Assembly (NCBI GenBank): GCA_011388305.1
Contig: DSAF01000158.1
Coordinates: 2,212 to 66,211 of the forward strand
Direction: 5' to 3'
Source: Candidatus Zixiibacteriota bacterium
Lineage (GTDB): Bacteria > UBP14 > UBA6098
Length of the DNA stretch: 64,000 nucleotides
Both the position numbers and the translations under genes were made by a program. Shown here one piece after another: positions 3,921 to 47,275 of this stretch (the stretch's first letter is position 1; every line of letters starts with the position of its first letter). The notes under the pieces were generated by a model. It was not told the DNA's origin, ran no database searches, and saw only the letters and a program-made list of their open reading frames with translations.

Positions 3921-3975
3921 TGAATTATGTTTTCAATGAATTATAACGATAGTGTCAAGTCATGCAAAGAAAAAA

Positions 3976-26597: not shown

Positions 26598-26710
26598 AGT
26601 CACTCCATGACAATCTGAGTTTACAAATTTATAGATTATATTTGAATAGCATCGCAAAGTCAAACCAAAATGCAATTTGGAGTTTGTTTCGATATTTTTG
26701 TGATTTCCGA

Positions 26711-30580: not shown

Positions 30581-31254
30581 TATCGGCCCCCTTCACACGC
30601 CTTGATGCACACGCCGCAGATGAACTGCCCGATTCCGCGCATTTTCGAGAACTCTTTCAGCAGTTCGAAGCATTTCCCGACATCGCAACCTTGCTGGGAA
30701 ATTGCGCCGGCGGGGCACGCGGAGATGCAAGCGGTGCAGTCGCCGCAGAGGTTCTCCATCGGTTCGCAAGGGGGCAACGGGATGTTGGTGAGCACGGTCG
30801 CGAATCTCATCTGCGCGCCGAATTGCGGCGTGACGACGAGGCCATGCCGCCCACGCCAACCGATGCCCGCGGTAATCGCCGCCGTGCGATGGCATAAATG
30901 GCCGCGCTGGTTCTCCCAATCCACGATGACGCTCGCCGGAATGGGCATGGCTTTCGCACTGCGAAGCTCGAGAAACAGGGCAAGCTCAGTTGCGGCGCGG
31001 TCGAGCCGCCAGTTGACCTGTTGGTAGTGATGCTTGTATAGCAAATTCGGACGGTCGTCAATGGTGTCGAGAACCGCATTGGACAGCGGATGCCCAAGGA
31101 CAATTGCGAACTCAAGCTCGCGCACAGCGGGCAATATTCTCTCGTCGATTGTCTCCGCTAAATCTTCAGTTCGGCAGAAGCCGACTGCCGGAAGCCTTAG
31201 CTCATCTCCCACGAAACGGCGGACTTCGGCTGAGTTTTCGGCGGGGTCGTTCAT
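30580..31254 (-). CDS. QueG-like 4Fe-4S protein (epoxyqueuosine reductase family, short form)
   Basis: Similarity to the QueG catalytic region (AGIGWRGRHGLVVTPQFGAQMRFATVLTNIPL). Two Cys clusters: CGDCTACISACP and CGVCIKAC. Confidence 0.55.
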   Translation of the reverse strand: MNDPAENSAEVRRFVGDELRLPAVGFCRTEDLAETIDERILPAVRELEFAIVLGHPLSNAVLDTIDDRPNLLYKHHYQQVNWRLDRAATELALFLELRSAKAMPIPASVIVDWENQRGHLCHRTAAITAGIGWRGRHGLVVTPQFGAQMRFATVLTNIPLPPCEPMENLCGDCTACISACPAGAISQQGCDVGKCFELLKEFSKMRGIGQFICGVCIKACEGGR

Positions 31255-33089
31255 CGGAGCAAAACTATGGGTTTGGCGGATTCGCTGAATTTTGTGCGCG
31301 CAAGATACACGCCCGACGGCAGAGGCCTTCCGCCGCTATCCTCCGCGTTCCAGAGGACGGGTGCGCCGCCGTTTGCGGGCAATTCCGCGACGAGCCTGCC
31401 GCTCATGTCATAAACTTCCACCGGCTCATCGGTCGCGATTCGGCAAGTTGCGTTAAACGGATTGGGATAGACGGAAAGCTCCATCTGGCGGGGCTTTTCG
31501 GCCTCAACTATGCTCGATGTCGTGTCGATGGGCGCAATAATCGAGCGTTCGCTTTCGGTGAAGCGAGTCGTGCTGGTGACGAAATAGTATGAGAAAAGAC
31601 TGTCGTAATCTACTATAGTCATTGTGTCAATAAAACTCCCCAAGAACACGGCGCCCGATGAATTCACCGAGTCGGATGTCGCATAGAGACGATATTCGAG
31701 CAAATCCCAGACATCCCGCGCGCCCCACGAGACGCGGACAAGCTCGCCCTCGCGCTGTGCCTCGACGGCCGATGGCGCTTTGGGATGAAGCCAGCCCGTG
31801 CGAAGCGGGTCGTGCCGCGCCATGACCCAAGGCCTCGAATAGCGCGTGCCCGTGCCGGGGTAGTCGAATAGGTGGACTTTGCCGTCCGAGCCTATCGCGC
31901 AGATTTCGAGAGTGTTGTCGCCGTTCATGTCGGCGATTGCCGGTGTGGCAAGTTTCCAAGGCGCGCCCGCTTGCCAAGGGAATGAGTCAATCGCCGAGCC
32001 AATCGCATTGAATGCCGCCACGGTGCCCAGCGAGTCGTTTCCTAAGAATAGGATGTCCGGCCTGCCGTCGCCGTCGAAGTCGCAGACAAGCGGGCTGGAC
32101 TCGAGCGCGCCGATTCCCAGCGCCATGCTCCATGGGCTTGGCGCGGTGGCATTCGCATTGATGACGTAGCCCCTGCCGTTCCGACTGGTCGCGATAACCT
32201 CCGGAAGGCCGTCGCCGTCGATATCGCCCACCGCGGAGGAACCATAGACCCAGCTTCCGTAGCCGCCAGCGGCAATCGGCCAGCTGGAGAGCTTCTCGGC
32301 ATATGCGTTCCACGCGGAGATATACCCGCGATTCGTGCCCACGAAAGCGTGATAGCCGCAGATTATTTCGAGCGTGTCGTTGCCGGTGATGTCCGCCAAA
32401 ATGGGCGCGCTATAGCTGAAACCGGCCGTGTCGCCGAGGCTTATCGGGAAGCCGGAGAGGACTTCGCCAGTGTAATCGAATGCGTAAAGCTTGTTATATC
32501 CAATCGCGACGATTTCGGCTCTGCCATCGCCGGTGATGTCGCCTATCGCGGGCGCACCTGCCGGCCCGAACTCCGATTCTACCGTCACAGGGAAGCCGGG
32601 GATGTCGTGTCCGTCGGCGTCGAGAAGATGCAGAGACTCGCCTACGTGGGCAACAATCTCCGCCCTGCCGTCGCCGGTGAAATCCCATAATGCGACTCCG
32701 GCCGGCCCGGGCGAATAGCCGAGCGCGACGGGATATGCAGAAATCTCCGCGCCGTTGGCCTCGAGCACGTGGACGACGCCCTCGTCTGTTATTGTGACAA
32801 GCTGAAACCATGTTCCCGTCACCGGCCCGAGCGCAACCGGCGTCGATACCGCTCCCGAGAGCACGACCGGATAGCCCGGAAAGCTCGTCCCATCGAGCGA
32901 GAAGACGCGAAGCGAGTCGTCCGGCCCGGCGATGACGACCTCGAGAACATCGTTGCAGTCGAGGTCAACCAGTAGCGGCGAGCTGAGAAAAGCGCCCTCC
33001 GGCACGGGAATTTCGACCGGCCAGCCGGGCAGTTGCCCTACGGCGAGGATGGCGGTTATCAACATCGTGGTGTAAAGAAAATATTTCAT
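31251..33089 (-). CDS. FG-GAP/VCBS-repeat protein with a T9SS C-terminal sorting domain
   Basis: Multiple DITGDGRAEIVA-type FG-GAP repeats. C-terminus LSVYPNPFNATCRIA...GVYLARTKF. Signal peptide present. Confidence 0.8.
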   Translation of the reverse strand: MKYFLYTTMLITAILAVGQLPGWPVEIPVPEGAFLSSPLLVDLDCNDVLEVVIAGPDDSLRVFSLDGTSFPGYPVVLSGAVSTPVALGPVTGTWFQLVTITDEGVVHVLEANGAEISAYPVALGYSPGPAGVALWDFTGDGRAEIVAHVGESLHLLDADGHDIPGFPVTVESEFGPAGAPAIGDITGDGRAEIVAIGYNKLYAFDYTGEVLSGFPISLGDTAGFSYSAPILADITGNDTLEIICGYHAFVGTNRGYISAWNAYAEKLSSWPIAAGGYGSWVYGSSAVGDIDGDGLPEVIATSRNGRGYVINANATAPSPWSMALGIGALESSPLVCDFDGDGRPDILFLGNDSLGTVAAFNAIGSAIDSFPWQAGAPWKLATPAIADMNGDNTLEICAIGSDGKVHLFDYPGTGTRYSRPWVMARHDPLRTGWLHPKAPSAVEAQREGELVRVSWGARDVWDLLEYRLYATSDSVNSSGAVFLGSFIDTMTIVDYDSLFSYYFVTSTTRFTESERSIIAPIDTTSSIVEAEKPRQMELSVYPNPFNATCRIATDEPVEVYDMSGRLVAELPANGGAPVLWNAEDSGGRPLPSGVYLARTKFSESAKPIVLLR

Positions 33090-33420
33090 CGCTTAGACCT
33101 CCATAAATTGCGTAAAAGATATGTCTCGAATGCGATAAAGCAATACTATTCTCTATCTTCTTGGCGAAAAAAGGATTATTTTTGACAAGAAAATTTTTTT
33201 AGTGATTTTTTTTCATAATTATATATATTATTTGGATAAGCTTGAGGGCTTATCCACATTAACCGGCAGTTAAGAACTGCCAAGCCCTTACGCTCAGAGG
33301 GGTTAAGGCCGACAGGCGGGGGCTTTTAAGGTGTTCCACATAATTAAGCGACAATAGCGGCTGTGCATTCGAGCACGCCGTTCAGCTTCATATTGCATTG
33401 GCAGGCCCGAAAGGAAATAT

Positions 33421-36400
33421 ATGCCTCAGCCAAAAAAAAGTCTTCGCTTTTCCCATATCGCACTCGCAATTCTCTCACTCTGCTCTATCGCAGTAGCCCA
33501 AACGGAAATCATCTTCGATGTCATTAGCGCCGGCGGAAACGAGCATTTCGGGGTCACATCATCGAGATACAAGCTGACATCGACAATCGGCCAGTCCACG
33601 CCGATTTCGGCGGAGCCGCTGACGGGAACATCGCACAGCATCTTCCCCGGCTATCGCAAAATTGACAGGGACTACTGGTATCCGTTCAGCTGGTTCACAA
33701 TCACCGTCCACTATGCCTCGGCGACATCGTTCGAGCTTACTTGGTCGGGGATGGACACCACATCACACGATGGCGAGGGCTGGGGAATCTGGAACTACGA
33801 CCTCCAGTATCGCACCGAGGGCGGCGCATGGACAGATTGGCACATGGCCACGGTCGAGACTTCGGCGACCTTCGGGCCGTCGGCGCCGGTTGTTGTCGAG
33901 GAGGGCGAGTCGTATTATTTCCGGCTCCGCGCGAGGGACAAGGTTCGCAATGTTGCGCCGTGGACGGAGGAGAGCGGCCACGACACGACGGTCATCACGG
34001 TGAACTACACAGTGGAGTTCTGCATTCACACGCCTGCTCCGGGGCTTTCGACGGATGCGTTCAACTTCGCGACAATCGAGTATTTCCCCGTCGCCGGCCT
34101 GCCCACGAGCGTCAACCTTTGGGAGGGCGAGTGCGTAGAGCTGTCCTGCGTTCCCGGCGAAAGGGCATCGATTTCGCGGACGACATCCGACTCCGACGGC
34201 GAGGAGCGCTGGGCGGTGTCCAACATCGATGACACTGCATTCGTCATCACCGGCTCGACCGATTACGACATACCATTTTGGCATCAAATTCGCCCGACTG
34301 TCCACCTTGTCGGGACGGACATAACGCACACCGTTTCGACACTTCAGCGCGAAGAATTCGGCTCGCCGCATCTTGAGTCCGGGCTATGGGAACTTTGGAC
34401 CGATTGGCTGGATTACGGCTCGACGCTCGAATTCTCCGAGTGGACTACCGGCTCTCCCGCGCGCAGAGCCGAAGCCGACGATTCTGTCCGCTTCCGCGAC
34501 ATTACTTCGTCATTCACCGATACGATTAACTACACCGCGGCCGGCAACATGGTGACAATCCAGACGAACTTCGGCGATTCGGTATATGTCGATGGCACGC
34601 GGTTCCCAAGCCCCCACCACACGAACTGGTTCATAGGCTCATCGCACGAAATAGCCGTCTGCAGGACGGTCCATATCTCTGACTGCGAGCGCTGGGTTTT
34701 CCAGCAATGGCACGATGGCTCGATAGACACGTCCCGCATGGTCACCATCGATTCCGATACGGTGTTCACCGCTATTTTCGAGCGGCAGTTGCGCGTGGAA
34801 ATCACGAACCCATCCGGCATTGGCTACCCCATCCCGGCGGTTGGCTCGTATTGGTTTGCTGAGGGCGATACGGTCGAGGGCCACATGGATGTCACGGGCG
34901 TTGTCGATTACATGCTCGTCGGTTGGCTCGGGACGGGGTCGGCGCTCTCCGGCGGAGGGGCGAGTTTTTGGTTCATCATTCACGACTGCTCGAGCATCGA
35001 GTGGCGATGGGTCCCCGCCAGCGACGATTTGTGCACGCTCCGCGTTTATAGCCGATACGGACATCCGCACCCCAGCGGCGTTTATGTCGTGCCGAGAGGG
35101 ACTTTGGTTTGGGCGAGCGTCGAGGACAGCACTTTCGAGGGCGGCGACTGGCATCATTGCACGGGCTGGCTCGGCGATGGCGATGTCGTGCCCGCAGAGG
35201 GCGACAGCAATATATTGAGTTTCACGATGACGGACAACGGCTGGCTCGTATGGCAGTGGGATGGCAATCTCGAACTGCCGTTAGTGGTCAGCAGTTCGCC
35301 ATCGATTCACGGCCCGCCGGTGCCGCCGGTGGGGACGCACTGGTATGAGATAGACTCGCCAATCTCCGCGTTCGTCGAGGAAAACCCCGACGAAGACTGG
35401 TTCTGCACCGGCTACATCGCATCGGGCGCACTGCCTACAACGAGTGCGGACAGCGTCCACTTCATCCTCTCCGCGCCCACGGAAATCGACTGGCAGTGGG
35501 TATATTACCCATCAGGGCCGCTGGATACCGTTTGGATTTTCAGCAGATTCGGCGACCCTCTTCCCACGCGCGGCATGCACAGATACCCGCGCGGCACGGT
35601 CGTCACCGCGGTGGTCACGCCGTTCGACGGCCCGAACTATTGCTCCGGCTGGTCGGGCACGGGCAGTGTTCCGGGGTTGGGCACGGGGACTTCGGTGAGC
35701 TTCACGCTGGATGCTTTCAGCACGCTCACATGGAATTGGAACGACGAGCTACTTGTGCCGCTTGTGGTGATAAACCCCGGCGGATACGGCAATCCCACGC
35801 CGAACGAGGGCGTCCATTGGTATGAGATGTTCACGGAGGTTAGCGCATCCGTGACAAGCCCCTATTCCGGCTGGTTCTGCGTCGGGTATAACGGCTTCGG
35901 GAGCGTGCCGGGGTTCGGATATCCGCCATATTGCCACTTCACCATTGCCGTGGCCTCGGGCATCGAGTGGCTCTGGGCAGACGAGGCTTATATCCTCCGC
36001 GTAACCGCGCCGGCTTACAGCGATCCTGTTCCGCCGGCGGGGATAACATATCACCCGCCCGGGCGTCATATCGTTGCGACCAATGTCGATACCCTATGGG
36101 AGCACGACGCTTTCCGCTACGTTTGCAAAGGCTGGACGGGCGACGGCACCGTCGTGCCGATTGCCGGCACGACGAGCATGGCAGATTTCACGATGACAGC
36201 TAATGCTACTCTTGAATGGCTCTATCAAACCCAGTTCTACCTCGAACTTGACTATTATGGCCTGCCGGAGGGCATCGAGCCGGATGTCCTCGACTTCGAG
36301 GGCTGGTTCGCCCGCAATGATACGGTCGTTCTCGTCACCGACTCGGTGGTTATGGACGGCGATGATCCCTATGTCTTCCTCCGCTGGGATGATTCGGGCA

Positions 36401-37782
36401 TCGGCGCACCAATCGATAACATATTCAGCGACTCAACATTCATCGTTATCGACAGTTCATACACCATTCTCGCGGAATTCCGCGAGGCGGTTTGGGTCGA
36501 GATAATCAAAAGCCCGCCGGGCAATGACCTCGGCTGGATTAGGATAAACACCGATACTACTTATGGCGAGGCTTTCGCCGGATATCTCGTCCGCGATTTC
36601 GAATACACAGTTCAAGTCTCGCCCTATGACGCAAACTCCGATGTGATGTTCAATTTCCTGCACTGGCGCGTGGATTCACTTGCCGCGTCCCAAAGAACAT
36701 TCACCCCCCTCTCGGACACCGTGCTCTATGCCGACTATCAGAGGTTCTGGCATATCATCATCGAGAAGCATCCGCCGGACAATCACCTCGGCAAGCTCGA
36801 GGTTGACGAAATCACTTATGCCGGCGCGGCTTCCGTCCGACAGTCTTTTTGGTGGGAGGACGGGAGCATTCACCGCTTCAATGTGACAGCGAGAGATTCT
36901 ACCCCGACTATCAGATACGATTTCAATCGCTGGAACGACGGCTCGACTTCTGTCAGCAGAATTTATGGTCCGGTCACCGGCCCGGATTCACTGGCCGCTC
37001 TTTACAATAAGACCGTCCTCTGCCGCGTCGAGAAGGTGCCGTCGCAACCATACGGCGCCATCGAGATTACGGGAACGCGTTATTACGGTGTCGGCGCGGT
37101 GGATTTCTGGCATCCATGGGGCGATGCGGTCGTTTTGGCCGTGAGCAAGTATGACGCCCACGACGATTCGGTCTATATATTCTCGCATTGGGATATCCCG
37201 GGAGAGCCTACGGATAGCGCATGGACTTGGCTCGATGTGAGAGAGCCACAGACGTTCAGAGCTATATACAACGGCTCCAAAATCAACATATATTTCGAGA
37301 TTGGACAGCATGGCGTCATGCCGCGTGACAGCATTTACTGGCTTATCCCCGATTCGCTGGATTTCGGCGAGGAGAGGGTAATGCCGATTCAGGATTCTAT
37401 TAGGATAGTGAGCCTCTCGAACGTCCCAATCGACTTTTCGCTGGGCATCGACCGAATAAAGGACTTGAACACCGGCACGCTTGATCCTCATTGGACGCCG
37501 GCATATTTCGCGGGCGTCGGCAGATTTGCGCTTCATGCACAATTCACGGATCTGTCCACGCCGCCGGTGACATGGGCGAGGATCCACGATTACGTTAAGG
37601 ATACGCCGTTCTGGGCGTCATCGATAATTTTCGGACCGGGGGGACATTACATTCAGCCCGAGGGATATCCGAACAGCTCGACAATGCTGTGGTTCAAATT
37701 CACAGCGCCGCTCGCATCCGAAAACTCGACGCACCAGCGGGCGATATGCCTCAAGCTTTCGGCAAGGATGTATTTACCATAA
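33421..37782 (+). CDS. giant secreted protein (1453 aa) with an FN3-like N-terminal region and more than ten tandem InlB-B-repeat-like (Listeria-Bacteroides repeat-like) modules
   Basis: Signal peptide, then repeated ~70-aa modules with the pattern P-x-P-x-G-x-(H/Y)-W-Y/F...C-x-G-W-x-G-x-G...F-T-M...W-x-W. Examples: YGHPHPSGVYVVPRGT...CTGWLGDGDVVP...LSFTMTDNGWLVWQW and FGDPLPTRGMHRYPRGT...CSGWSGTGSVPG...VSFTLDAFSTLTWNW. Confidence 0.75.
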   Translation: MPQPKKSLRFSHIALAILSLCSIAVAQTEIIFDVISAGGNEHFGVTSSRYKLTSTIGQSTPISAEPLTGTSHSIFPGYRKIDRDYWYPFSWFTITVHYASATSFELTWSGMDTTSHDGEGWGIWNYDLQYRTEGGAWTDWHMATVETSATFGPSAPVVVEEGESYYFRLRARDKVRNVAPWTEESGHDTTVITVNYTVEFCIHTPAPGLSTDAFNFATIEYFPVAGLPTSVNLWEGECVELSCVPGERASISRTTSDSDGEERWAVSNIDDTAFVITGSTDYDIPFWHQIRPTVHLVGTDITHTVSTLQREEFGSPHLESGLWELWTDWLDYGSTLEFSEWTTGSPARRAEADDSVRFRDITSSFTDTINYTAAGNMVTIQTNFGDSVYVDGTRFPSPHHTNWFIGSSHEIAVCRTVHISDCERWVFQQWHDGSIDTSRMVTIDSDTVFTAIFERQLRVEITNPSGIGYPIPAVGSYWFAEGDTVEGHMDVTGVVDYMLVGWLGTGSALSGGGASFWFIIHDCSSIEWRWVPASDDLCTLRVYSRYGHPHPSGVYVVPRGTLVWASVEDSTFEGGDWHHCTGWLGDGDVVPAEGDSNILSFTMTDNGWLVWQWDGNLELPLVVSSSPSIHGPPVPPVGTHWYEIDSPISAFVEENPDEDWFCTGYIASGALPTTSADSVHFILSAPTEIDWQWVYYPSGPLDTVWIFSRFGDPLPTRGMHRYPRGTVVTAVVTPFDGPNYCSGWSGTGSVPGLGTGTSVSFTLDAFSTLTWNWNDELLVPLVVINPGGYGNPTPNEGVHWYEMFTEVSASVTSPYSGWFCVGYNGFGSVPGFGYPPYCHFTIAVASGIEWLWADEAYILRVTAPAYSDPVPPAGITYHPPGRHIVATNVDTLWEHDAFRYVCKGWTGDGTVVPIAGTTSMADFTMTANATLEWLYQTQFYLELDYYGLPEGIEPDVLDFEGWFARNDTVVLVTDSVVMDGDDPYVFLRWDDSGIGAPIDNIFSDSTFIVIDSSYTILAEFREAVWVEIIKSPPGNDLGWIRINTDTTYGEAFAGYLVRDFEYTVQVSPYDANSDVMFNFLHWRVDSLAASQRTFTPLSDTVLYADYQRFWHIIIEKHPPDNHLGKLEVDEITYAGAASVRQSFWWEDGSIHRFNVTARDSTPTIRYDFNRWNDGSTSVSRIYGPVTGPDSLAALYNKTVLCRVEKVPSQPYGAIEITGTRYYGVGAVDFWHPWGDAVVLAVSKYDAHDDSVYIFSHWDIPGEPTDSAWTWLDVREPQTFRAIYNGSKINIYFEIGQHGVMPRDSIYWLIPDSLDFGEERVMPIQDSIRIVSLSNVPIDFSLGIDRIKDLNTGTLDPHWTPAYFAGVGRFALHAQFTDLSTPPVTWARIHDYVKDTPFWASSIIFGPGGHYIQPEGYPNSSTMLWFKFTAPLASENSTHQRAICLKLSARMYLP

Positions 37783-37825
37783 TCAATATGCGTTATTGGA
37801 TAATTCCCAAAGACATGGAGCAGAT

Positions 37826-40111
37826 ATGAAAAAGACAATTCTTCTTGCGCTCGTGATGATGTTAGCCGTGACGGCTCTCATGGCCGAGATTCCCCGCAAA
37901 ATTAACTATCAGGGGAAGCTGGCCGACGCAGACGGCATCGGCATCGAGGACGATGTGAATATGGTGTTCTCGCTTTTCGCCGGCCCGACGGGCGGGACGC
38001 CACTCTGGACGGAAACGCACAGCGGTGTTTCGGTGCAGAAGGGGCTTTTCGATGTCCTTTTAGGTTCGGTGACGGCGTTTCCCGAAGCGCTTCGCTTCGA
38101 CGCGCCATATTGGCTGGAGATTACCGTCGATGGCGACATAATGCGGCCGAGGGTTCAATTCTATTCTGTGCCATACGCTCTCTCGGCGGGCACCGCGACC
38201 TCGGTTTCATCGAGCGCCGCCGGAAGGGGACTCTCAGTCGATGCGGGAGACTCACTACATGTGAACGTCCGCGACGGCATCGAGATTTTCAACGACTCGC
38301 TTCAGATTAAGAACGCGGGCGTCTCCTGGCCAAAGCTCGACGAGGAGGTCAAGGACAGCATTCGATACGCTATCGGCGCGGGCGGTGTGAGCAGTCTCAA
38401 CACGCTCACCGGCGACTTGTCCATTGTAGGCGAGGGGGGCGTCTCGGTGAGCGCCGAGGGGTCGAACATTGTCGTAGATCTCACGCTCGCTCCGGGGGAT
38501 TGCCCGATGCTGATTGACCTCACAGAAGGCTCGACCGGCAATCAATATGTCCCGACGAACGTTCAGACTTTCACCCCGTCTATAGGCCAGTTTCTCATTC
38601 TCGGCGACGATATTGGTTGCACCGGCGGGCGCATGTATGGCGCGACTCTCATCGCCACATCGACATCCGGCACGATACCCGATGTAGATATCTGGTTCGA
38701 CAATGTCCTCTTGAGCGACCTCTCGGGCGGCTCGGTCTTCCCGTCGGGAACGCCGATTATCTCTGGCGCAACGCTGACAATCAACCCCGACAGCACCGTC
38801 GAGCTGACCTTCCCGCGAGGCTTTGTGTATGCCGGCAATAATCTGCTTGTCACCATGCGCAAAAACAGCACCGCCGGAATCTTCTCGGCATGGGTGGGCA
38901 AGCCTACGGCGACTGTCAACGCGCGATACACACCGGACGCTTCGAGCTTCCCGATGACGCACACGGCGAATTTCCGCCCGAATATCAAGCTCAATTTCCT
39001 CGCACCGGAGATTCCCGACATCGTAAACGATGTCAACGGCATCACCGGCTCGGTGAACATTATCGGCGGAACGGCAATCAATGTCGAAACGGCCGGCTCG
39101 GACATCACCATCAATTACACCGGCGAGTTCGAGGATGACGAAAACTGGAATTTCCGCGTCACCGACGGCGCGGACACAACGCTCATCACCAGAGGTCGCT
39201 GGGGACTCGCGCGCGGCGGCAACACTCTCCACGGCAACGCCGACTCGACTCACACGAATTGGGGCATCGCTTCGGTGACGGGAACATCCGGCTCGAATTA
39301 CAAGTATGCCACTGTAGGCGGCGGCGCAAACAATTTGGCCGGACATACTTGGACGACTGTCTCCGGAGGCTCGGAGAATCAGGCGCTCGGCCCTGGCGCG
39401 ACCGTTGGCGGAGGTTTTCTCAACACCGCGAGAGACTCGGCATCCGTCATCGGCGGCGGAAGCTGGAACGAAACCAGCGGCAAGTATTCAACTATCGCCG
39501 GCGGAAATAACAACACCGCATCAGGGCTTTGGTCAACTGTAGGCGGCGGATACAGCAACTCCGCAAGCGAAATGAACGCCACCGTCGCGGGAGGATTCCA
39601 GAATGCCGCGAGCGGGCTTTGGTCTGCAATCGTCGGAGGACACAATAACCAAGCCCAGTTCGACTATGCCGCTGTCGGCGGCGGAAGGAACAACATCGTC
39701 GCGGGCGAAAGGGCTGTCATCCCCGGCGGAAGCCTTCTGAAGGTCGGCTCACGGAGCTTCGGCTTCAGAGGAGGAATCGGCGGCAATCCCACTACACTGT
39801 CCGATGTCTCCGGCTCGCCCGAGACTTTCCATATCGTCGATGCGCATTTCCACCATAATTATAATAATTCCGCGGCTCATTTCCGCGTGGACGGAACGAC
39901 GGACTTCATGATTTACATGAATGCGACATCGAACCGCATAGGCTTCAACACGAACACGATGAGCCGAATGATAGACATCAACGGCACGGTGGGAATCAGC
40001 GACACATTAGACATGCGCCAAAACCAGACGATTAACATGGTGCTCGAAAACCGCACGGACAATCCGCCGAGTCCGGTTATCGGCCAGATTTGGATGCGCA
40101 TCGACCTTTAG
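37826..40111 (+). CDS. cell-surface / tail-fibre-like protein with N-terminal beta-sandwich repeats and a C-terminal Gly-rich 'GG' head-repeat region
   Basis: Signal peptide (MKKTILLALVMMLAVTALMA) and the N-terminal module KINYQGKLADADG...TPLWTETHSGVSVQKGLFDVLLGSV...YWLEITVDG. The C-terminal half is made of repeated ATVGGGxNNxASGxWSTVGGG units (YadA-head/Hep_Hag-like). Confidence 0.65.
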   Translation: MKKTILLALVMMLAVTALMAEIPRKINYQGKLADADGIGIEDDVNMVFSLFAGPTGGTPLWTETHSGVSVQKGLFDVLLGSVTAFPEALRFDAPYWLEITVDGDIMRPRVQFYSVPYALSAGTATSVSSSAAGRGLSVDAGDSLHVNVRDGIEIFNDSLQIKNAGVSWPKLDEEVKDSIRYAIGAGGVSSLNTLTGDLSIVGEGGVSVSAEGSNIVVDLTLAPGDCPMLIDLTEGSTGNQYVPTNVQTFTPSIGQFLILGDDIGCTGGRMYGATLIATSTSGTIPDVDIWFDNVLLSDLSGGSVFPSGTPIISGATLTINPDSTVELTFPRGFVYAGNNLLVTMRKNSTAGIFSAWVGKPTATVNARYTPDASSFPMTHTANFRPNIKLNFLAPEIPDIVNDVNGITGSVNIIGGTAINVETAGSDITINYTGEFEDDENWNFRVTDGADTTLITRGRWGLARGGNTLHGNADSTHTNWGIASVTGTSGSNYKYATVGGGANNLAGHTWTTVSGGSENQALGPGATVGGGFLNTARDSASVIGGGSWNETSGKYSTIAGGNNNTASGLWSTVGGGYSNSASEMNATVAGGFQNAASGLWSAIVGGHNNQAQFDYAAVGGGRNNIVAGERAVIPGGSLLKVGSRSFGFRGGIGGNPTTLSDVSGSPETFHIVDAHFHHNYNNSAAHFRVDGTTDFMIYMNATSNRIGFNTNTMSRMIDINGTVGISDTLDMRQNQTINMVLENRTDNPPSPVIGQIWMRIDL

Positions 40112-40224
40112 GAAATATTCGTGCCGGTTATCATTTCATCGGCAAAATTCCCGTTGAACTGGATGGGAAAATTGTTATATTGCATGAAAATTTGATACGC
40201 ACTATTATAAAAGTAAGGAGAGAG

Positions 40225-41172
40225 ATGAGGGGTATTATCTTAACACTGGCGCTTATCGCGGTTGCCGGGATGGCTATCAATACGACGCCGTATTTCCCGA
40301 TAGCGCTCGGACATGAGTGGGTCTATCAGGATTCATCGGAGGCCGGATATGACACATCGCGCGCCTTAGTCAGCGGGATGACCACGATTCACGGGCACGA
40401 GACCTTTATCGTCACGAAGAGGGGCGTCGAAGGCATCGATAGCTCGTTCTATCAGGTTCGCCCCGAGGGTTTCTACGAAATGTTCAATCTTTATGTGGAA
40501 ATGGCAGACATTTCAATCGAGAACTATCCGGTGCTGTTCATGAAGAACCCAGCCGAAATCGGCGAAAGATGGGCGGCTATGTCGATTGATACGAGCATGA
40601 TGGTTATGGGTTTTCCGGTCGATCTGACCATCGATGTCATAGCCGAGTTCGAGGGCTTCCACGATTTGATTCTCCCAATCGGCGACATGCGCGACTGCAT
40701 TAAAATAACTGCCCTCGCAGACTGGAAAATCGACGCGGGCGCACTCTTCGCAGACTCCGGTCAGGATCTCTACTCGATTTCATATTATGTCGAGAATGTC
40801 GGCCTCGTCAGCCAAACGGAGTTTGACATCATGGGCGCCATGATGGGCGGCTCGATGGACGCCACCACTTCCAAGCTCATCAGCTATGACTTCTCCTCCA
40901 TTGAGGAGCTTATCGATCGTCCGGAGGGCATGGAGCTTTCCGCCTTCCCGAACCCGTTCAACTCTGCGGTGACTATCCGCCTTCCGAGCGCCGATGTCCG
41001 GCGCGTGGAAATTTTCGACGTCACGGGCAGAGTCGTCGAGACGCTCGATGTCCCTTCCGGCGCAGGCTTCGTAGGATGGGAGCCTTCGCAGACGGCGCAA
41101 TCAGGCGTTTACTTCATCAAGGCTTTTGCCCCAGCCGCCGAGTTCTCTACACGCGCAGTCTATCTAAAATAG
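40225..41172 (+). CDS. hypothetical secreted protein with a T9SS C-terminal sorting domain
   Basis: SD AAGGAGAG before the ATG. Signal peptide present. C-terminus LSAFPNPFNSAVTIRLPS...GVYFIKA. Confidence 0.75.
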   Translation: MRGIILTLALIAVAGMAINTTPYFPIALGHEWVYQDSSEAGYDTSRALVSGMTTIHGHETFIVTKRGVEGIDSSFYQVRPEGFYEMFNLYVEMADISIENYPVLFMKNPAEIGERWAAMSIDTSMMVMGFPVDLTIDVIAEFEGFHDLILPIGDMRDCIKITALADWKIDAGALFADSGQDLYSISYYVENVGLVSQTEFDIMGAMMGGSMDATTSKLISYDFSSIEELIDRPEGMELSAFPNPFNSAVTIRLPSADVRRVEIFDVTGRVVETLDVPSGAGFVGWEPSQTAQSGVYFIKAFAPAAEFSTRAVYLK

Positions 41173-41186
41173 CGGCCAAGTTTTAA

Positions 41187-42410
41187 GTGAAAAAGCTGGT
41201 CACCATCGCGGTTCTCGCCGTTGTCGTCGCCACGACGATAGCGGCGAGAACCGGCGTTGTGGTTTGGGAGACTATCAACCTGCGCGAGGGGCCGGGCACC
41301 CGCTATCACCGTCTCGGGAATTTCGAAAAGGGCAAGTATTTCGCCATTCTCGGTCAAGAGGGCAACTGGGTCGAGGTCAACGCCAACGGCATTCACGGAT
41401 ATTTCTACAAAGACGGCATCAAAGAGGTCAAGACGCTCGGAACTTACATCGTTCGCGAGGATGAAGTCCTCTTTCGCTGGGGGCCGGGAGAGCGATTCGA
41501 TACGCTCGCCATCCGAGAAGGGGGGATTGCCATCGAGGTGGTATGGGAGCACGGACAATACCTTTTCGGCCAGTTCAACGGCTCGGGCGTGTGGTTCAAC
41601 CGCGATGCGGTAATCAAGATTCTCCCCTCGGACGACGAAGTTCCCGGGCTGGAGTCGCCGCTTGTGGATGACATCCCCGAACTTCCGGAAATTCCCGAAG
41701 TGGTCGTGCCAGCGGTTGAAAAGCCTCCGGTGCGAACCGAGCCAACGGTGCAGATTACTCGGAGAGTCCCGGAACCTCCCCCGAAAACGCCCTCCCGATG
41801 GCGCTGGGGCGCGATGGTCTCCGCCAATAACGCGTGGGTTCACAGCGAGGTTGCCGATCCTTTGCAGGACATCTCCATTCCCACTATCACTATCGGCGAG
41901 GACTATCGCCAGAGCTTGCTGGGCGGCCAGTTCCGCGCGCATGTGGGGTTTTCCCCGGGGAAAAAGCGCCGATGGGAAATCGCACTTCTTCCGTCCGTCG
42001 CGTGGACGCCCAAGAGCCACATCGTCAACATCCACGGCGAAAACCACACCGTGACAGACGAATATCTTCGCGCAGGCGGCGAGCTTGGCTTGGCGTTCAA
42101 ACCTCACCGCTCTTTTGCTTTGGGGATAGGCGGCGGGTGCACAATGATAGAGCACGAGATGCGCCTTTCCAGCCAAAACGGCACGAGCGAGCAAGTCTTG
42201 ATGGACGGCTCTTTCCTTGCTCCTATGGGGTTCTTCGAGTTTCGCATTGGCGCGGGAGCTTTGAAGACCGTCGCGGGCGCGAGCTGGACGCAATGGATTT
42301 CCGACAACACGCGCTTCTTCGTCGAGCGCGACGGCACGCCGATTCCCATCGGCGGGGATGTCAACAGAGAATCGTTCGAGGTATATATTGGCCTTATGCT
42401 TTCGAAATAG
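41187..42410 (+). CDS. SH3b-domain protein with a C-terminal beta-rich (possibly outer-membrane) region
   Basis: N-terminal SH3b motif (VNLREGPGTRYHRLGNFEKGKYFAILGQEGNWVEV), a Pro/Glu-rich linker and a ~200-aa beta-strand-rich C-terminus. Confidence 0.6.
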   Translation: MKKLVTIAVLAVVVATTIAARTGVVVWETINLREGPGTRYHRLGNFEKGKYFAILGQEGNWVEVNANGIHGYFYKDGIKEVKTLGTYIVREDEVLFRWGPGERFDTLAIREGGIAIEVVWEHGQYLFGQFNGSGVWFNRDAVIKILPSDDEVPGLESPLVDDIPELPEIPEVVVPAVEKPPVRTEPTVQITRRVPEPPPKTPSRWRWGAMVSANNAWVHSEVADPLQDISIPTITIGEDYRQSLLGGQFRAHVGFSPGKKRRWEIALLPSVAWTPKSHIVNIHGENHTVTDEYLRAGGELGLAFKPHRSFALGIGGGCTMIEHEMRLSSQNGTSEQVLMDGSFLAPMGFFEFRIGAGALKTVAGASWTQWISDNTRFFVERDGTPIPIGGDVNRESFEVYIGLMLSK

Positions 42411-44313
42411 CGCGCGCTGGGCGTTTCTTTTCGCCATTCTCGCCGCCGTTTCTTGCGGATGGGAGGAGAAAAGCCCCGTCTCGCAATATCCCGAGCTTCG
42501 ATGGGGGGTGAGCTTCCACGCCGAAAGTGGCATCATCGAGGCGGAGTTCTGCAATATTCTCGTGCGCGGCGACTTCTCCCGCGACAACATCTCCGCCGAA
42601 CCGGCAGATTTCGCGGTAATTCTCACGCCGGATACCAATTACTATTTCTACTCGCCCAAGCAGGGGAATCTCGAGAATTTGAGCCTACGATTGAGCATAG
42701 ACGCGCTGATTCTGCTCCTTCGCGACCAAGGCTACTTCGGCGAAGCGCACCGGCGGCCGGATTTTTACGCGTCGCAGTTCGTCGGCATAGACATCTCCGG
42801 CGATCAGGATGCGCCCGAAAAGCTTTTCGAGAACAGGCTGAACCGATTCGCCGGCATCGTCTCCGGCGGCTCGATGAAGATTTTGCCGTCGCCTTCGGGC
42901 GGAACTTCGCTCGTTGCGCCTTTTCTCTTCGACGAGATGGGCGCGATAGTGCAGAACGACGGGCACACGGCGATGTTGCCCTGCAGGATTTCGCCGCCGC
43001 CGGACACGGCATATCTATACAACGCGAACTCGCTGGCCATGCTTCTCGAGCCGCTTTCAGCGTCCTACATCGAGGAATTCGGGGAGCTGTTTTACGAGGG
43101 TATTTCCGTTTCGCCGCCGCTGGTAGCGCGTCTCTCTATCGCCGACCAGATGGGCATTCTCGCGCTGGTTATCGATGCTTTCTCATCCGAGGCGACCGGC
43201 GATGAGAACGTCGATTCAGCCGAAGTGCGGCTTACCAGCAGAATCGAGCCTTTGGCCGAAGATTTCGACCTCTCGCTCCGTAATACATTGAGCTATCGGG
43301 AGATTTCCGCCCTCTTTCGCGAGATTATCACAGCCGATATCCTCGAACGCCTCATCGATTCCCCCGCCGAGACAACGGTTATCTCCTTTACCGCTAATGC
43401 ACTGCGGCACATATTGTTAGGCGTAGATTCGCTGGTCGGTGCCGTGGAGACATACGCGCGTCCGCCGTTCGCGAAATGGGCTGGAAGAATCCCCAGTGTC
43501 AATATCGAAGCGCCGATTTCCGGCGAGACCTATTCGCGCTCCGAGGAGGTCGAGTTCATCGGCTCTGCGACAGACCCAGAAGACGGCGCTATCCCCGGCA
43601 ATATGCTGAACTGGCGCTCATCCCGCGATGGCGACTTGGGCATCGGCGCGACGATTCGCCGAAGAATCTCCTCCGGCGACCACGAGATAATCCTCTCTGC
43701 GGAGAACTCAAACGGCTTTGTAGCTGAGGACACGGTGCACATCACAGTTGATTTGGGCAGGCCGCCTTATGTTCGAATTCTCTCGCCCGAGAGCAACTCC
43801 GAGTTTCAGAACACACTGCTGGTGGCCTTCCTCGGCCATGCCGAGGATTTCGAGGACGGCCTCCTCACCGGCGAATCGCTGGAGTGGACGTCCTCGATTG
43901 ATGGATTCTTGGGCTATGGAACTTCAATCGAGCGCGAGCTGTCCGTCGGCACACATACAATCACATTCACCGCCACTGACAGCGACGGGCTTTCCTCCTC
44001 GGACGAAATCACAATCGAGGTCATCCTCAACACGCCGCCGGATGTCTGGATTATCTTGCCACGCGACGGGGACACGCTGTCGATGATAGGCCTGAACATC
44101 TTCATCGGCGGCGCAACCGACGCTGAAGACCTCGTCATTCCGGCGGACAACCTCGTCTGGACATCGAGCCGCTCCGGCGAAATTGGCAGAGGGTTCTTCT
44201 TCCAGCTAATGTTCATGATGCCCGGCAGGCACGAGATTGTTCTCACTGCGACGGACTCCGGCGGCCTCTCCGCCGCGGACACTATCGAGGTTTTCGTCAG
44301 TTTCAGCGATTGA
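42358..44313 (+). CDS. lipoprotein with three C-terminal tandem Ig-like (~90 aa) repeats
   Basis: Lipobox LAAVSC. The C-terminal repeats follow the pattern P-x-V-x-I...G...V-x-F-x-G-x-A-x-D-x-EDG...L-x-W-x-SS-x-DG-x-LG...G-x-H-x-I. The start is uncertain: the ORF-track ATG overlaps the upstream gene by 53 nt, and a downstream TTG is possible. Confidence 0.6.
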   Translation: MSTENRSRYILALCFRNSARWAFLFAILAAVSCGWEEKSPVSQYPELRWGVSFHAESGIIEAEFCNILVRGDFSRDNISAEPADFAVILTPDTNYYFYSPKQGNLENLSLRLSIDALILLLRDQGYFGEAHRRPDFYASQFVGIDISGDQDAPEKLFENRLNRFAGIVSGGSMKILPSPSGGTSLVAPFLFDEMGAIVQNDGHTAMLPCRISPPPDTAYLYNANSLAMLLEPLSASYIEEFGELFYEGISVSPPLVARLSIADQMGILALVIDAFSSEATGDENVDSAEVRLTSRIEPLAEDFDLSLRNTLSYREISALFREIITADILERLIDSPAETTVISFTANALRHILLGVDSLVGAVETYARPPFAKWAGRIPSVNIEAPISGETYSRSEEVEFIGSATDPEDGAIPGNMLNWRSSRDGDLGIGATIRRRISSGDHEIILSAENSNGFVAEDTVHITVDLGRPPYVRILSPESNSEFQNTLLVAFLGHAEDFEDGLLTGESLEWTSSIDGFLGYGTSIERELSVGTHTITFTATDSDGLSSSDEITIEVILNTPPDVWIILPRDGDTLSMIGLNIFIGGATDAEDLVIPADNLVWTSSRSGEIGRGFFFQLMFMMPGRHEIVLTATDSGGLSAADTIEVFVSFSD

Positions 44314-44346: not shown

Positions 44347-47178
44347 CTATTCTTTATAAATCAGCACTGCCGGCCTGATAACTCCCGCGCGAATCTGCGT
44401 CCTTCCGGAGATGCTCGCGAGCCTGCCCGCTGAACTCTCGATGACGCCTCGAACTTGCCCGGAAACTTCGTATTCCCCAAAGCCGCTCGTAAAAATAACG
44501 GGAAAAGGCAAAGCCTCGTCGCCGGTATGCGCGAGGCCGAGTTCTCTCCCGCAGAACTTCCTCCAATCGACGCTTGGGATTGACGGCGCTATAATTCCCG
44601 CGACGGCAATCTCGGCGCATCTGCGCAGAAAATCGAGGTCGATTGGTTTCATGGAGGCAATAATTTTGCCCTCGAGTTCCGGTTTTAATGATGAAATGTT
44701 TTCGGCGATTAAGATTTCGCCTGCCGCCTCGCCCCCGAAGCCGATTTTGCCATAGATTTTGCCGGCGGTGGCGAGAATGGTGACGCTTCGTTTAGGTTCA
44801 ACAGCGGTGACTACGCCTCTAACGAAGGCTTTTAGCTCCACAGGTTCGATGTCATATTGGATGGTCACTTTGCCGCTTTTTTGGTCAATATTTTTAATGG
44901 TGCCGGTGCTCGGCGCTTTGATGATAATATTATTTCGCAGATCGCCGGCAATCATCTGGCCAGCCTCGACAAAATCTCCGAGCCTGTATCGGAGATGCCC
45001 GGCGACATGCGATGGCTTGATATGCATAAGCTTTGCGACATGAACGGTGTGCGGCCTGCCGTCATAATCTTGAATTTCTCGCATAATGATAAGGCCGGAC
45101 GGCTCGATTTTTTCAATCATCCCGCGCACCGGCGAACTGAAGTATATTTTGCTCCCGAATATGCCCTCGGTTGCGGCAAAAATCCTCTGACCGATTTTGA
45201 CCGACTCGCCCTCGGCGACGAGGATGCCTTCGGCTATATCCTCTTCACTTAAAGGTTTTTCATAGCCTGCGAGACGATTGATATCGAGAATGTAGAGGCG
45301 CGGAGGGCCGAATCGGTTCTCGCCGATAGTGTCCCATGGTTCGACAGAATCGCCTACTTTGGCCAGAATATCGCCATCGTATGGGAGCTTTCGGTCGATA
45401 GAGTATTCGCCGAACTCGGGCTTTTTTTCTTCGACCATGATTGTATCAACAACTCCGGCATCGCACTTGAACTTTGAAATCCTTCCGCCGAGGAAGAACC
45501 TTCCTCGGCCACGGCAATCAATTATTACGGACATCTCCGTGTTTATTTCGGCGGTTGTTCGGTCGTTCTCGAGGTTGAGTCTGCCATGACACTCTATCAT
45601 GAAATCGCCGCCACCATCGATGATAATCGCCTGTCCGCCTTCGACTATAAGCTTTTCGCCGGTGGTGCGATTCTTGACAGTTAGCGCGGGCTTGCCTCGA
45701 CGAACCTTCCCCAACGGCGCAACGACATGGCCGAGAGACTCGATGCACTCATCTTCGAAGAGGCGGAGGGCTTCATCCGGCTCCACCTTCGAGAAAATGC
45801 CAAGATGCGGCGATTTGAAATGCCTGTCGATTGCAAGCTCTGTGATTCCCGTCGGCATGAAGGCATCGGCAAGGATAATTCTCGCGACATCGCCGGGAAG
45901 ATGCGTGATCACGCCGCCTGCGCCGATGAGGAGCGAAATATCCGAAAGCTGAAATTTCTCCTCGTGTTTGTTCAACTGAAGCACCTCTTCCCAGCGATTG
46001 GAGTCCGCGAGGAGCTTTTTGCGGCGGTCGAGGAAACCGACTCGGCTAATCTTGAAGTTCATATCGACATGCTTTTCCCACGCCATCCGCATTCCCTCGA
46101 TAGCACAAGCATATTCTACGAGTTTCTGCGATTCGGCCTGTGGAACATGCGTAGGATTCAGTGTCTTATTCGCGATGTAATTGCGGATTTCGCCCTCGGG
46201 AATGCCTTCGATGTGCGACGAAACGGCCTCGATGCCAGCCTCCACGAGGATGTTCGACAGCGAATAGCTCATCCCGATGTTCGCCGAAACCGTGCGGTGG
46301 TGTTGCGATTTGATGACCGTGAAAATGTCCGTTGTTGCGCCGCCGATGTCAACCATCGCGATATTTCGGCCGGTTTTGTCTGCGAATGCCGAGAGCATCG
46401 CCTCGACGCCCGCGGGCGTGGGCATGATGTCCGTTTTCACGCTCGATTTCAGTTCGGAATATCCCGGCGCGCGCTCCATGACATTATCCATAAAAAGCTC
46501 ATGAATCTTTGCTTTCGCCGGTTCTGTGTTCATCCTTTCCATGTCCGGCCGGACATTCGGGACGATGTGCACATCGAAATTCTCGGCCAGCAAGTTCGCT
46601 ACAAACGCCCGCGCAGACTTGTTTCCGCAGAAAACCAGCGGAATCTTCTCGCCCTCGCGGAATTTCGGCGAGGGCTTGGCGAGGCTAAGAATCTCTGCAA
46701 GCTCGACGACCGGGGCTATCGCGCCACCATCGATGCCGCCGGCCATGAGAATCATGTCAGGGTGAAGCTCGCTCATGATGCGCATCTTCTCGACCGGCGG
46801 GATTTTGTCGTCTATCGTGAACGTCTTGAGGATGATGCCGCCGGCGCCGTATGCCGTCATCTCGGCGACCGTGCCGGTTTCGTTGGATGAGAGGCCGAAT
46901 ACTAATATCTGCAGGCCGCCACCGGCCGAGCTTGTAGTGAGAAAAGGCGCAGTGAGTTTTCCGTTGTCGTCGGTGAGGGGCGCGTCTAATCCCTCGCCGA
47001 TGCCCTCGATGAGGCGGCGCAGGCCTACCCGCACATCCTCGTCGGGCTTCTCGACGGTCGTGGCAGTGTCGAACTGTCTCAAGAAACGGAAACCGTCGTC
47101 GGTTCTTTCTAAGAGTAGCCCCTTCGTGGTAGTGCTTCCAATGTCCGTTATCAGTAAATAATTGCTGTTACGTGACAT
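44347..47178 (-). CDS. large fusion protein: GlmL/MutL-like (glutamate-mutase-L / reactivase-like) ASKHA ATPase N-terminal half plus a C-terminal half of four barrel-sandwich-hybrid-like repeats
   Basis: Two ASKHA phosphate motifs, LLITDIGSTTTKG and MVDIGGATTDIFTV. The C-terminal half contains repeated xGDxVxxGQxIA motifs: KVGDSVEPWDTIG, VAEGESVKIGQRIFAA, GDFVEAGQMIAGDL. The start is set at MSRNSNY, preceded by GGCGGAGGAAAAA. Confidence 0.6.
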   Translation of the reverse strand: MSRNSNYLLITDIGSTTTKGLLLERTDDGFRFLRQFDTATTVEKPDEDVRVGLRRLIEGIGEGLDAPLTDDNGKLTAPFLTTSSAGGGLQILVFGLSSNETGTVAEMTAYGAGGIILKTFTIDDKIPPVEKMRIMSELHPDMILMAGGIDGGAIAPVVELAEILSLAKPSPKFREGEKIPLVFCGNKSARAFVANLLAENFDVHIVPNVRPDMERMNTEPAKAKIHELFMDNVMERAPGYSELKSSVKTDIMPTPAGVEAMLSAFADKTGRNIAMVDIGGATTDIFTVIKSQHHRTVSANIGMSYSLSNILVEAGIEAVSSHIEGIPEGEIRNYIANKTLNPTHVPQAESQKLVEYACAIEGMRMAWEKHVDMNFKISRVGFLDRRKKLLADSNRWEEVLQLNKHEEKFQLSDISLLIGAGGVITHLPGDVARIILADAFMPTGITELAIDRHFKSPHLGIFSKVEPDEALRLFEDECIESLGHVVAPLGKVRRGKPALTVKNRTTGEKLIVEGGQAIIIDGGGDFMIECHGRLNLENDRTTAEINTEMSVIIDCRGRGRFFLGGRISKFKCDAGVVDTIMVEEKKPEFGEYSIDRKLPYDGDILAKVGDSVEPWDTIGENRFGPPRLYILDINRLAGYEKPLSEEDIAEGILVAEGESVKIGQRIFAATEGIFGSKIYFSSPVRGMIEKIEPSGLIIMREIQDYDGRPHTVHVAKLMHIKPSHVAGHLRYRLGDFVEAGQMIAGDLRNNIIIKAPSTGTIKNIDQKSGKVTIQYDIEPVELKAFVRGVVTAVEPKRSVTILATAGKIYGKIGFGGEAAGEILIAENISSLKPELEGKIIASMKPIDLDFLRRCAEIAVAGIIAPSIPSVDWRKFCGRELGLAHTGDEALPFPVIFTSGFGEYEVSGQVRGVIESSAGRLASISGRTQIRAGVIRPAVLIYKE

Positions 47179-47275
47179 TTTTTCCTCCGCCGTTTGAGGC
47201 GCTGTTCGACACAAATAATTCTTGATGCACAGAATATATATATTCCTGCAAGAATCTGTGGCCTATTGGAACCTA

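Follow-up and report, generated by a model that had tools for sequence, protein, structure and literature searches.

The DNA analysed here is a stretch of 64,000 nucleotides (nt), called the window below, and the span under study runs from 33090 to 44313; genes were called and their products were scanned against Pfam and NCBIfam. Five open reading frames (ORFs) lie there on the plus strand, namely g1 (33421-37782, 1453 amino acids (aa)), g2 (37826-40111, 761 aa; the maximal ORF begins at the TTG at 37796), g3 (40225-41172, 315 aa), g4 (41187-42410, 407 aa) and g5 (42388-44313, 641 aa, or 651 aa if the start is the ATG at 42358), and they are enclosed by two minus-strand genes, one upstream (31251-33089) and one downstream (44347-47214). 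An earlier note on this DNA had described a five-gene plus-strand run bounded by minus-strand genes, and we found the same ORFs and flanks. The product of g2 is a fibre adhesin resembling the mosaic adhesive trimer (MAT) fibres by which Bdellovibrio bacteriovorus recognises its prey (Caulton et al. 2024, PMC10769870), and g1 encodes a member of a family whose genes accompany those of such fibres. This conserved pairing of a MAT-type fibre with an undescribed partner is the new point of our analysis.

No Pfam, NCBIfam or PHROG entry matched g1 (Pfam and NCBIfam were searched to E ≤ 10), and 18 full-length homologues of nearly equal length were found at 46-64% identity. Judged from its sequence, g1 is a member of an undescribed and unannotated protein family. 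Self-BLAST failed to reveal repeats in the protein, and the repeat map given here comes from iterated hidden Markov models (HMMs). After a signal peptide (aa 1-26), an N-motif of three short S-x-x-Y-x-L-like strands (aa 27-84) and an FN3-like domain with the signature DTTxxDGEGWGIWNYD (aa 85-190) together form the N-cassette (33499-33990, plus strand), which is the most conserved part of the family. A 'mid' module (aa 191-380) is followed by one type B repeat (aa 383-453), six type A repeats (aa 467-935) and four further type B repeats (aa 952-1283), and the protein closes with a C-terminal domain (CTD; aa 1284-1453, 37270-37779, plus strand), an immunoglobulin (Ig)-like beta-sandwich ending in ..AR..LP. 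The earlier note had read more than ten InlB-B-like modules into this protein. The number holds, since there are 11 modules, but they are of two types, six A and five B, which we take as unrelated because the hhalign probability between them is 0.1, and only type A resembles Flg_new_2, matching segments of the protein P0020 weakly (independent E 1e-4 to 1e-2). In P0020-P0022, Flg_new_2 takes turns with an unnamed module, and type B matches this module with independent E down to 1e-13. Neither InlB-B (PF09479) nor Flg_new_2 (PF18998) was called in g1, even at E ≤ 10.

With the N-terminal region of g1 as query, an exhaustive phmmer search returned 761 proteins at E ≤ 0.001, which were sorted by sub-domain HMMs. 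Members of the g1 family have fixed ends (N-motif, FN3-like domain and CTD) with 0 to at least 11 beta-sandwich repeats between them, and their lengths range from ~350 to 1850 aa. In the alignment, mini forms of 345-376 aa have nothing besides N-motif, FN3-like domain and CTD; intermediate forms have 698-1364 aa, the window form ~1450 aa and one form 1852 aa. The N-cassette and the CTD co-occur in nearly every complete member, whatever stands between them, and other giant proteins contain repeats related to the FN3-like and 'mid' modules. AlphaFold2 modelled the CTD of g1 with a predicted local distance difference test (pLDDT) of 90.9 and a predicted template modelling (pTM) score of 0.85, and with Foldseek the best PDB matches of this model were the CfaB and CS17 pilins (E ~2e-3, TM score 0.43). 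The structural matches, all of modest score, comprised TLP-1b, a DUF1102 tube, archaeal pilins, CsuA/B, TasA and CfaB, and generic PapD/ASH Ig domains tied with these donor-strand-exchange subunits. The viral fold library gave no match to the CTD at E ≤ 1e-3, which argues against a phage-derived partner, and the CTD profile had no sequence match in PDB. A search of a 5.8-billion-protein set with the 170-aa CTD profile returned nothing, not even the family's own members, and we took this as a limit of the tool with queries as short as one domain rather than as evidence.

The fibre g2 carries a signal peptide (aa 1-20), a MAT-type N-domain (about aa 21-135; 37886-38230, plus strand) and a beta-roll resembling the UspA1 head (aa 496-657; 39311-39796, plus strand). 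Its N-terminus matched the NCBIfam model NF053851 (Bdello_MAT_N) at E 9e-10 and 38.6 bits, where the cut-off is 60, over profile positions 2-77 of 162. Ten neighbouring fibres of relatives matched NF053851 at 30-48 bits, and all of the fibre N-termini tested (11/11) matched Bdello_MAT_N at E 1e-7 to 1e-12. The similarity of the g2 N-domain to MAT appears significant, yet it lies outside the curated subfamily. The beta-roll matched the UspA1 head (PDB 3pr7, E 5e-24; 3ntn, E 1e-7; Pfam UspA1_rep weakly), bearing out the YadA-head-like GG repeats that had been noted for g2, and this similarity would be compatible with a trimer. Neither a YadA-type C-terminal anchor barrel nor a stalk or coiled-coil match was found in g2 at E ≤ 10 in Pfam and NCBIfam; a trimeric autotransporter adhesin was considered for g2 and ruled out, as the protein has no translocator or anchor domain. 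Peptidase_S74 had no match in Pfam either, which places g2 in the NS74 class. Paralogous fibres have only their first ~125 aa in common, and those of the related loci L002, L006, L009, L012 and L022 are 36-61% identical to each other or to g2 within the first ~110-210 aa and not beyond. MAT fibres are defined by a mosaic build (PMC10769870), and it is found here too, with a shared base and differing distal parts, of which the UspA1-like head is the one in g2.

The genomic contexts of the g1 family were gathered by look-ups and a metagenome scan, and 29 non-redundant loci had enough flanking sequence, the remaining loci being too short. In 27 of these 29, a MAT-N fibre gene accompanies the g1-family gene on its strand, with a gap of <200 nt in 25 and of 2.2-2.6 kb in L020 and L042. 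In two further loci, L014 and L021, the partner is preceded by a fibre-like ORF that is truncated at its 5' end. The pairing occurs in at least four arrangements, and the flanking genes differ between loci: g1, fibre and a VWA gene in this order (type I), one or more fibre genes followed by g1 (type II), a fibre gene followed by a mini partner, and, in L026, a fibre gene followed by a 1315-aa partner. The mini-form genes stand 8-194 nt from the fibre gene, and the fibres beside them have common C-termini that end in a right-handed beta-helix. The identity between MAT-N domains follows the paralogue type of g1 even inside a single metagenome-assembled genome (MAG), with 0.48-0.53 within a type and 0.41 between types. 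A mirror-tree comparison of MAT-N with the partner domains gave Spearman coefficients of 0.45-0.65, and only the contrast between paralogues within a MAG was used because the mirror-tree result is confounded by shared phylogeny.

Some MAGs hold two or more g1-family genes (UBA6098, with L010 and L015; binchicken_co17_265, with L011 and L016; SRP241326_co3_316, with L013 and L018), and UBA6098 and binchicken_co17_265 have one type I and one type II module each. The MAG of the window may also have a second such gene, as suggested by P0016, whose locus tag (ENN07_00070) has the same prefix as that of the window's protein. The type II loci L002 (1-9860), L006 (1-9933) and L009 (1-9924) contain arrays of two or three fibre genes, one of them with a Peptidase_S74 C-terminus, and the C-terminal parts of the fibres are shuffled between these three loci. 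The 1414-1494-aa genes upstream in type II loci had been candidates for a g1 paralogue; they proved to be fibres with a MAT-N domain and were rejected as such. The distal parts of the type II fibres tested had no Pfam match. In L002 and L009, the partner is also preceded by a gene for an SBBP beta-propeller protein of 536-544 aa. The fibres next to mini partners (L023, L024, L027-L030, L033, L034, L043, L045) are very long, at 1346-2147 aa, and six of the eight that were scanned against Pfam have a C-terminal right-handed beta-helix of the pectate-lyase or tailspike-like kind, hinting that they may bind or depolymerise polysaccharide.

To compare the gene content of relatives, profile HMMs of every gene were mapped onto 45 related loci. 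Only g1 and g2 travel together across these relatives, and g3, g4 and g5 occur solely in the window, L007 and L010. The loci L004, L013 and L016 have the block of g1, fibre and VWA genes followed by unrelated genes, such as a transketolase gene in L004. Within the window, 113 nt separate g2 from g3, the gap between g3 and g4 is 14 nt, and g4 and g5 overlap. The genes g3-g5 are a separate, tightly packed neighbour operon, known besides the window only from its two nearest relatives, and the five genes that the earlier note had taken as one module are two units, g1-g2 and g3-g5. In all six other type I loci an integrin-beta-like VWA (MIDAS) gene of ~670-890 codons follows the fibre gene (L004 16997-19126, L007 9774-11885, L008 16824-19490, L010 16948-18996, L013 16881-18950, L016 16969-18975). 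No such gene is present in the window, either at 40112-40224, where there is no room for it, or elsewhere in the 64 kb, and we conclude that the VWA gene of the type I arrangement has been lost from this locus.

The composition of the locus is that of its surroundings. The GC content of g1-g5 (0.52-0.59) and their GC content at third codon positions (GC3; 0.64-0.72) agree with those of the remaining window sequence, and in codon usage four of the genes show distances, 0.065-0.085, that are among the smallest in the window (g4 was compared by GC and GC3 only). The sole tRNA found by a scan of the window lies at 3975, 29 kb away, so that none adjoins g1-g5; no bounding direct repeats were found around the five genes, and no mobility-gene domains among the genes called around the locus. 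The nearest relatives L007 and L010 keep the order FG-GAP gene (minus strand), g1, g2, VWA gene, g3, g4, g5, the VWA gene being the one that the window lacks. The view that g1-g5 are one horizontally acquired island for an adhesion or surface-layer module, which the earlier note had raised as a possibility, could draw on the common direction and predicted secretion of all five genes, on the opposite-strand genes at both ends and on the recurrence of the five-gene order in L007 and L010. Native composition and codon usage, the lack of an adjoining tRNA, of bounding repeats and of mobility-gene domains, and the shared gene order, which extends to the upstream FG-GAP gene, do not support such an acquisition; moreover, L004, L013 and L016 do without g3-g5, and the type II and mini loci hold the pair of fibre and partner alone. 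We regard a single acquired island as highly improbable. The region of g1-g5 is a native chromosomal locus with two adjacent envelope units and no foreign island. It resembles an ordinary core locus in its uniform composition and in its synteny with close relatives, but not in its genes, which have no known annotation.

For the products of g3-g5, the sorting domain, the SH3b domain and the lipobox with three Ig-like repeats that had been proposed from the sequence were found again, while the beta-barrel-like part proposed for g4 stays putative. A type A sorting domain of the type IX secretion system (T9SS) lies in g3 (40945-41124, plus strand) and exceeds the cut-offs of both Pfam PF18962 (27.1 bits, cut-off 27) and TIGR04183 (28.4 bits, cut-off 23); the L007 orthologue of g3 has a weak DUF3108_like match. 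As had been stated, g3 is alone among the five in carrying a T9SS CTD, since g1, g2, g4 and g5 had no match to it in Pfam or NCBIfam. The predicted secreted protein g4 contains an SH3b domain (41271-41414, plus strand; SH3_3 E 2.7e-10; PDB SH3b structures 2kt8 and 2kq8), which is followed by a proline-rich linker and a C-terminal region of ~200 aa. The product of g5 is predicted to be a bacterial lipoprotein, with a lipobox Cys (42454-42456, plus strand) that fits the PROSITE-type pattern and a ..SC|GWE segment conserved in three orthologues; a ~350-aa N-terminal region precedes three tandem Ig/PKD-like repeats of 90 aa (43504-44310, plus strand; independent E ~1e-35 to 1e-41 each), and Pfam gave weak Big_7 and PKD matches for the protein. 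All five products have a signal peptide or lipobox together with adhesin-type domains, in line with the secreted or surface adhesion role that had been suggested and that appears probable here as well.

An ORF of 492 aa at 41160-42638 on the minus strand runs antisense over all of g4. It was rejected as a gene because no homologue supports it, while g4 has SH3b matches and orthologues, and it is most likely a by-product of the high GC3 of g4. The upstream flank gene encodes an FG-GAP repeat protein with a weak T9SS CTD match, and it is predicted T9SS cargo, as is a subtilase with FlgD_ig and Por_Secre_tail domains encoded at 23730-26675 (minus strand). With two such cargo genes nearby, the host evidently uses the T9SS, yet the fibre and its partner have no sorting domain. 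The downstream flank gene encodes a 955-aa protein of the GlmL/'MutL' family, with an ATPase-like GlmL/'MutL' (PF13941) N-terminal half and weak RnfC_N and NqrA barrel-sandwich matches in its C-terminal part; it is about twice as long as the models of GlmL and the ornithine-degradation accessory protein (~450 positions).

The 331-nt spacer upstream of g1 (33090-33420) is AT-rich and contains inverted repeats. Both features had been pointed out before, but the positions given then for the repeats were 8 nt off, the true ones lying 8 nt upstream. The first hairpin has 12-nt arms that are 92% complementary (33230-33241 and 33248-33259, plus strand), with the core GGATAAGC at 33234, and the second has its arms at 33265-33271 and 33275-33281 (plus strand); both lie at the predicted start of the 5' leader. 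By eye, L007 and L008 likewise show hairpin-capable sequence right after a -10-like box. Rfam gave zero matches on the region including these hairpins, which are possibly a leader stem-loop or an operator. Just upstream lies the block TTTTTAGTGATTTTT (33194-33229, plus strand), with a -35-like GTGATT (33202-33207), a 16-nt spacer and a -10-like TATATT (33224-33229). An upstream alignment of the window with L007, L008 and L010 shows it to be conserved in all four (4/4) of these close type I loci, and we read it as a putative promoter; a consensus promoter scan did not list it because its -35 element agrees at 3/6 positions. In the 113-nt gap between g2 and g3, a terminator-like hairpin with an 8-pair stem and a T-rich tail lies at 40148-40179 (plus strand). 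Since the terminator scan yields no more sites than it does on shuffled sequence, this hairpin is weak evidence for a boundary between transcription units.

For the g1-g2 unit of this native two-unit locus, we tentatively favour, with slightly less than even confidence, a role of g1 in docking and spacing the base of a MAT-type fibre at the cell surface. In this proposal, g2 would be exported by Sec and would form a trimeric MAT-type fibre, with its N-domain (~115 aa) at the base and, farther out, a lineage-specific part whose UspA1-like head would bind the target. With its invariant ends, g1 would bind the fibre N-domain and so attach g2 to the cell envelope for display, and the repeats in between would serve as a stalk that determines the distance of the fibre from the cell. 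The N-domain is all that the fibres have in common, and the partners agree only in their ends; read most simply, the partner ends act on the fibre base. Several observations weigh against this proposal. The tie between g1 and g2 appears as genomic coupling and not as physical or structural evidence, and since many of the 27 loci are orthologues, they amount to about four independent paralogous pairings. L019 and L025 have a partner gene with no fibre gene within 8-10 kb. The Bdello_MAT_N matches stay below the NCBIfam cut-off and cover the first half of the profile only. The AlphaFold2 model of g1 aa 27-385 is uninformative (pLDDT 41, with the N-motif below 45). There is no lipobox, T9SS CTD or beta-barrel in g1 and thus no recognisable membrane anchor. 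Finally, no relatives of g1 were found in Bdellovibrio or in named organisms, as the hits looked up had Zixibacteria, 'bacterium' or hypothetical labels, and the proposed role may therefore be lineage-specific. We consider doubtful the wider claim that the g1 family as a whole is the cell-surface partner of MAT-type fibres, in which the N-motif and CTD would clamp the fibre N-domain or engage in strand exchange and the repeats would be an evolvable stalk of 0 to at least 11 modules.

The two genes might instead be co-transcribed with no contact between their products, g1 being an independent giant adhesin or surface-layer protein. The almost wholly beta-sandwich modular build of g1, typical of adhesins, the repetition of FN3-like and 'mid' relatives in other giant proteins and the solitary family members in L019 and L025 would all agree with this. 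However, the repeat-free mini forms of ~350 aa still stand next to a fibre gene, the conserved parts are the two ends and not a tip, and fixed ends with a variable spacer are the pattern of a connector and not of a ligand-binding adhesin. The docking and stalk role fits better because there are mini forms without any repeats, and an independent adhesin seems unlikely to us. It is also conceivable that the g1 family provides trans-acting chaperones for the folding or trimerisation of fibres that lack S74, as phage tail-fibre assembly proteins do. None of the partner-adjacent fibres scanned against Pfam has Peptidase_S74, S74 fibres, where they occur in these clusters, do not adjoin the partner, and the mini forms come right after the fibre gene, like phage tfa genes. 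Phage assembly chaperones, however, act on the variable distal tip of the fibre and co-vary with it, whereas here conserved partner ends stand beside unrelated fibre tips, and docking at the base fits better because the partner does not co-vary with the tips. A chaperone of 1453 aa with an 11-repeat spacer is hard to rationalise as well, and neither PHROG nor the viral fold library gave a match, so that we judge a chaperone role quite improbable.

The CTD fold and the strand-like N-motif also keep in play a polymerisation of g1 by donor-strand exchange, in which the strands of the N-motif would complete the CTD of the next subunit, head to tail, and give a pilus-like filament carrying the fibre. 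The joint occurrence of N-cassette and CTD in nearly every complete family member, and an N-motif that is strand-like and does not fold alone in the AlphaFold2 model, would be expected of such a subunit. The pilin match of the CTD, however, has a TM score of 0.43 and an E above 1e-3, neither a chaperone nor an usher gene was found at the window locus, and the CTD was modelled confidently without a donor strand; a filament of this kind is very unlikely in our view.

Since a homologous MAT N-domain occurs in an uncultured, distant lineage and nearly always has a single unannotated family as its partner, the question of how this domain is anchored, which was left open for Bdellovibrio (PMC10769870), becomes that of a testable pair of proteins, and the mini forms of ~350 aa are easy to express and to model. 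If the g1 family as a whole is the cell-surface partner of MAT-type fibres, this would be the first candidate mechanism for holding MAT-type fibres on a cell, and together with the VWA/MIDAS gene of the sister loci it would suggest a Bdellovibrio-like cell-recognition apparatus in uncultured Zixibacteria-like bacteria. How far this idea extends is uncertain, given that the organisms are uncultured and that a counterpart in Bdellovibrio was not found.

The locus can be compared with several known systems. Like the genes of phage Tfa/gp38-like assembly proteins, the g1-family gene adjoins a fibre gene and has the same direction, but the g1 family is secreted, reaches 1850 aa, has conserved parts that do not co-vary with the fibre tips, and matches no PHROG or viral fold. 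With Flg_new_2 or divergent InlB B-repeat proteins (PF18998; the Ignavibacteria T9SS protein P0020), g1 shares a weak likeness in type A and a module in type B; these proteins differ from g1 by their T9SS CTDs and have neither its N-cassette nor its CTD, and Pfam does not call the domain in g1. The Ig-like sandwich of the g1 CTD resembles donor-strand-exchange subunits (CfaB, CsuA/B, TasA, archaeal bundling pili and the environmental TLP-1 fibril), and a strand-like N-terminal segment accompanies this CTD in the g1 family. In contrast to those fibres, Pfam shows no PapD-like chaperone or usher families among the products of the window locus, and the g1-family subunit would be up to 1850 aa long, with long repeats between donor and acceptor. 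The alignment of g2 aa 496-657 with the UspA1 head beta-roll recalls the YadA/UspA1 trimeric autotransporters, but g2 lacks their anchor barrel and its attachment would be N-terminal, giving the opposite polarity.

The MAT fibres differ in three respects: the g2 N-domain scores below the cut-off of the Bdellovibrio subfamily and covers only the first half of its model, the host belongs to an uncultured lineage labelled Zixibacteria/UBP14, for which predation is not known, and a fixed partner gene accompanies the fibre here, whereas the main text of PMC10769870 mentions none. They are also the system to which g2 and its relatives can be likened on several counts. A conserved beta-rich N-domain of ~125 aa appears to follow the signal peptide directly in both, the g2 paralogues are mosaic, with a shared base and swapped distal parts, and S74 and non-S74 versions stand in the same clusters of relatives. 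The MIDAS/VWA protein encoded nearby in most loci, finally, recalls the Bd0875 MIDAS adhesin (PMC11003981).

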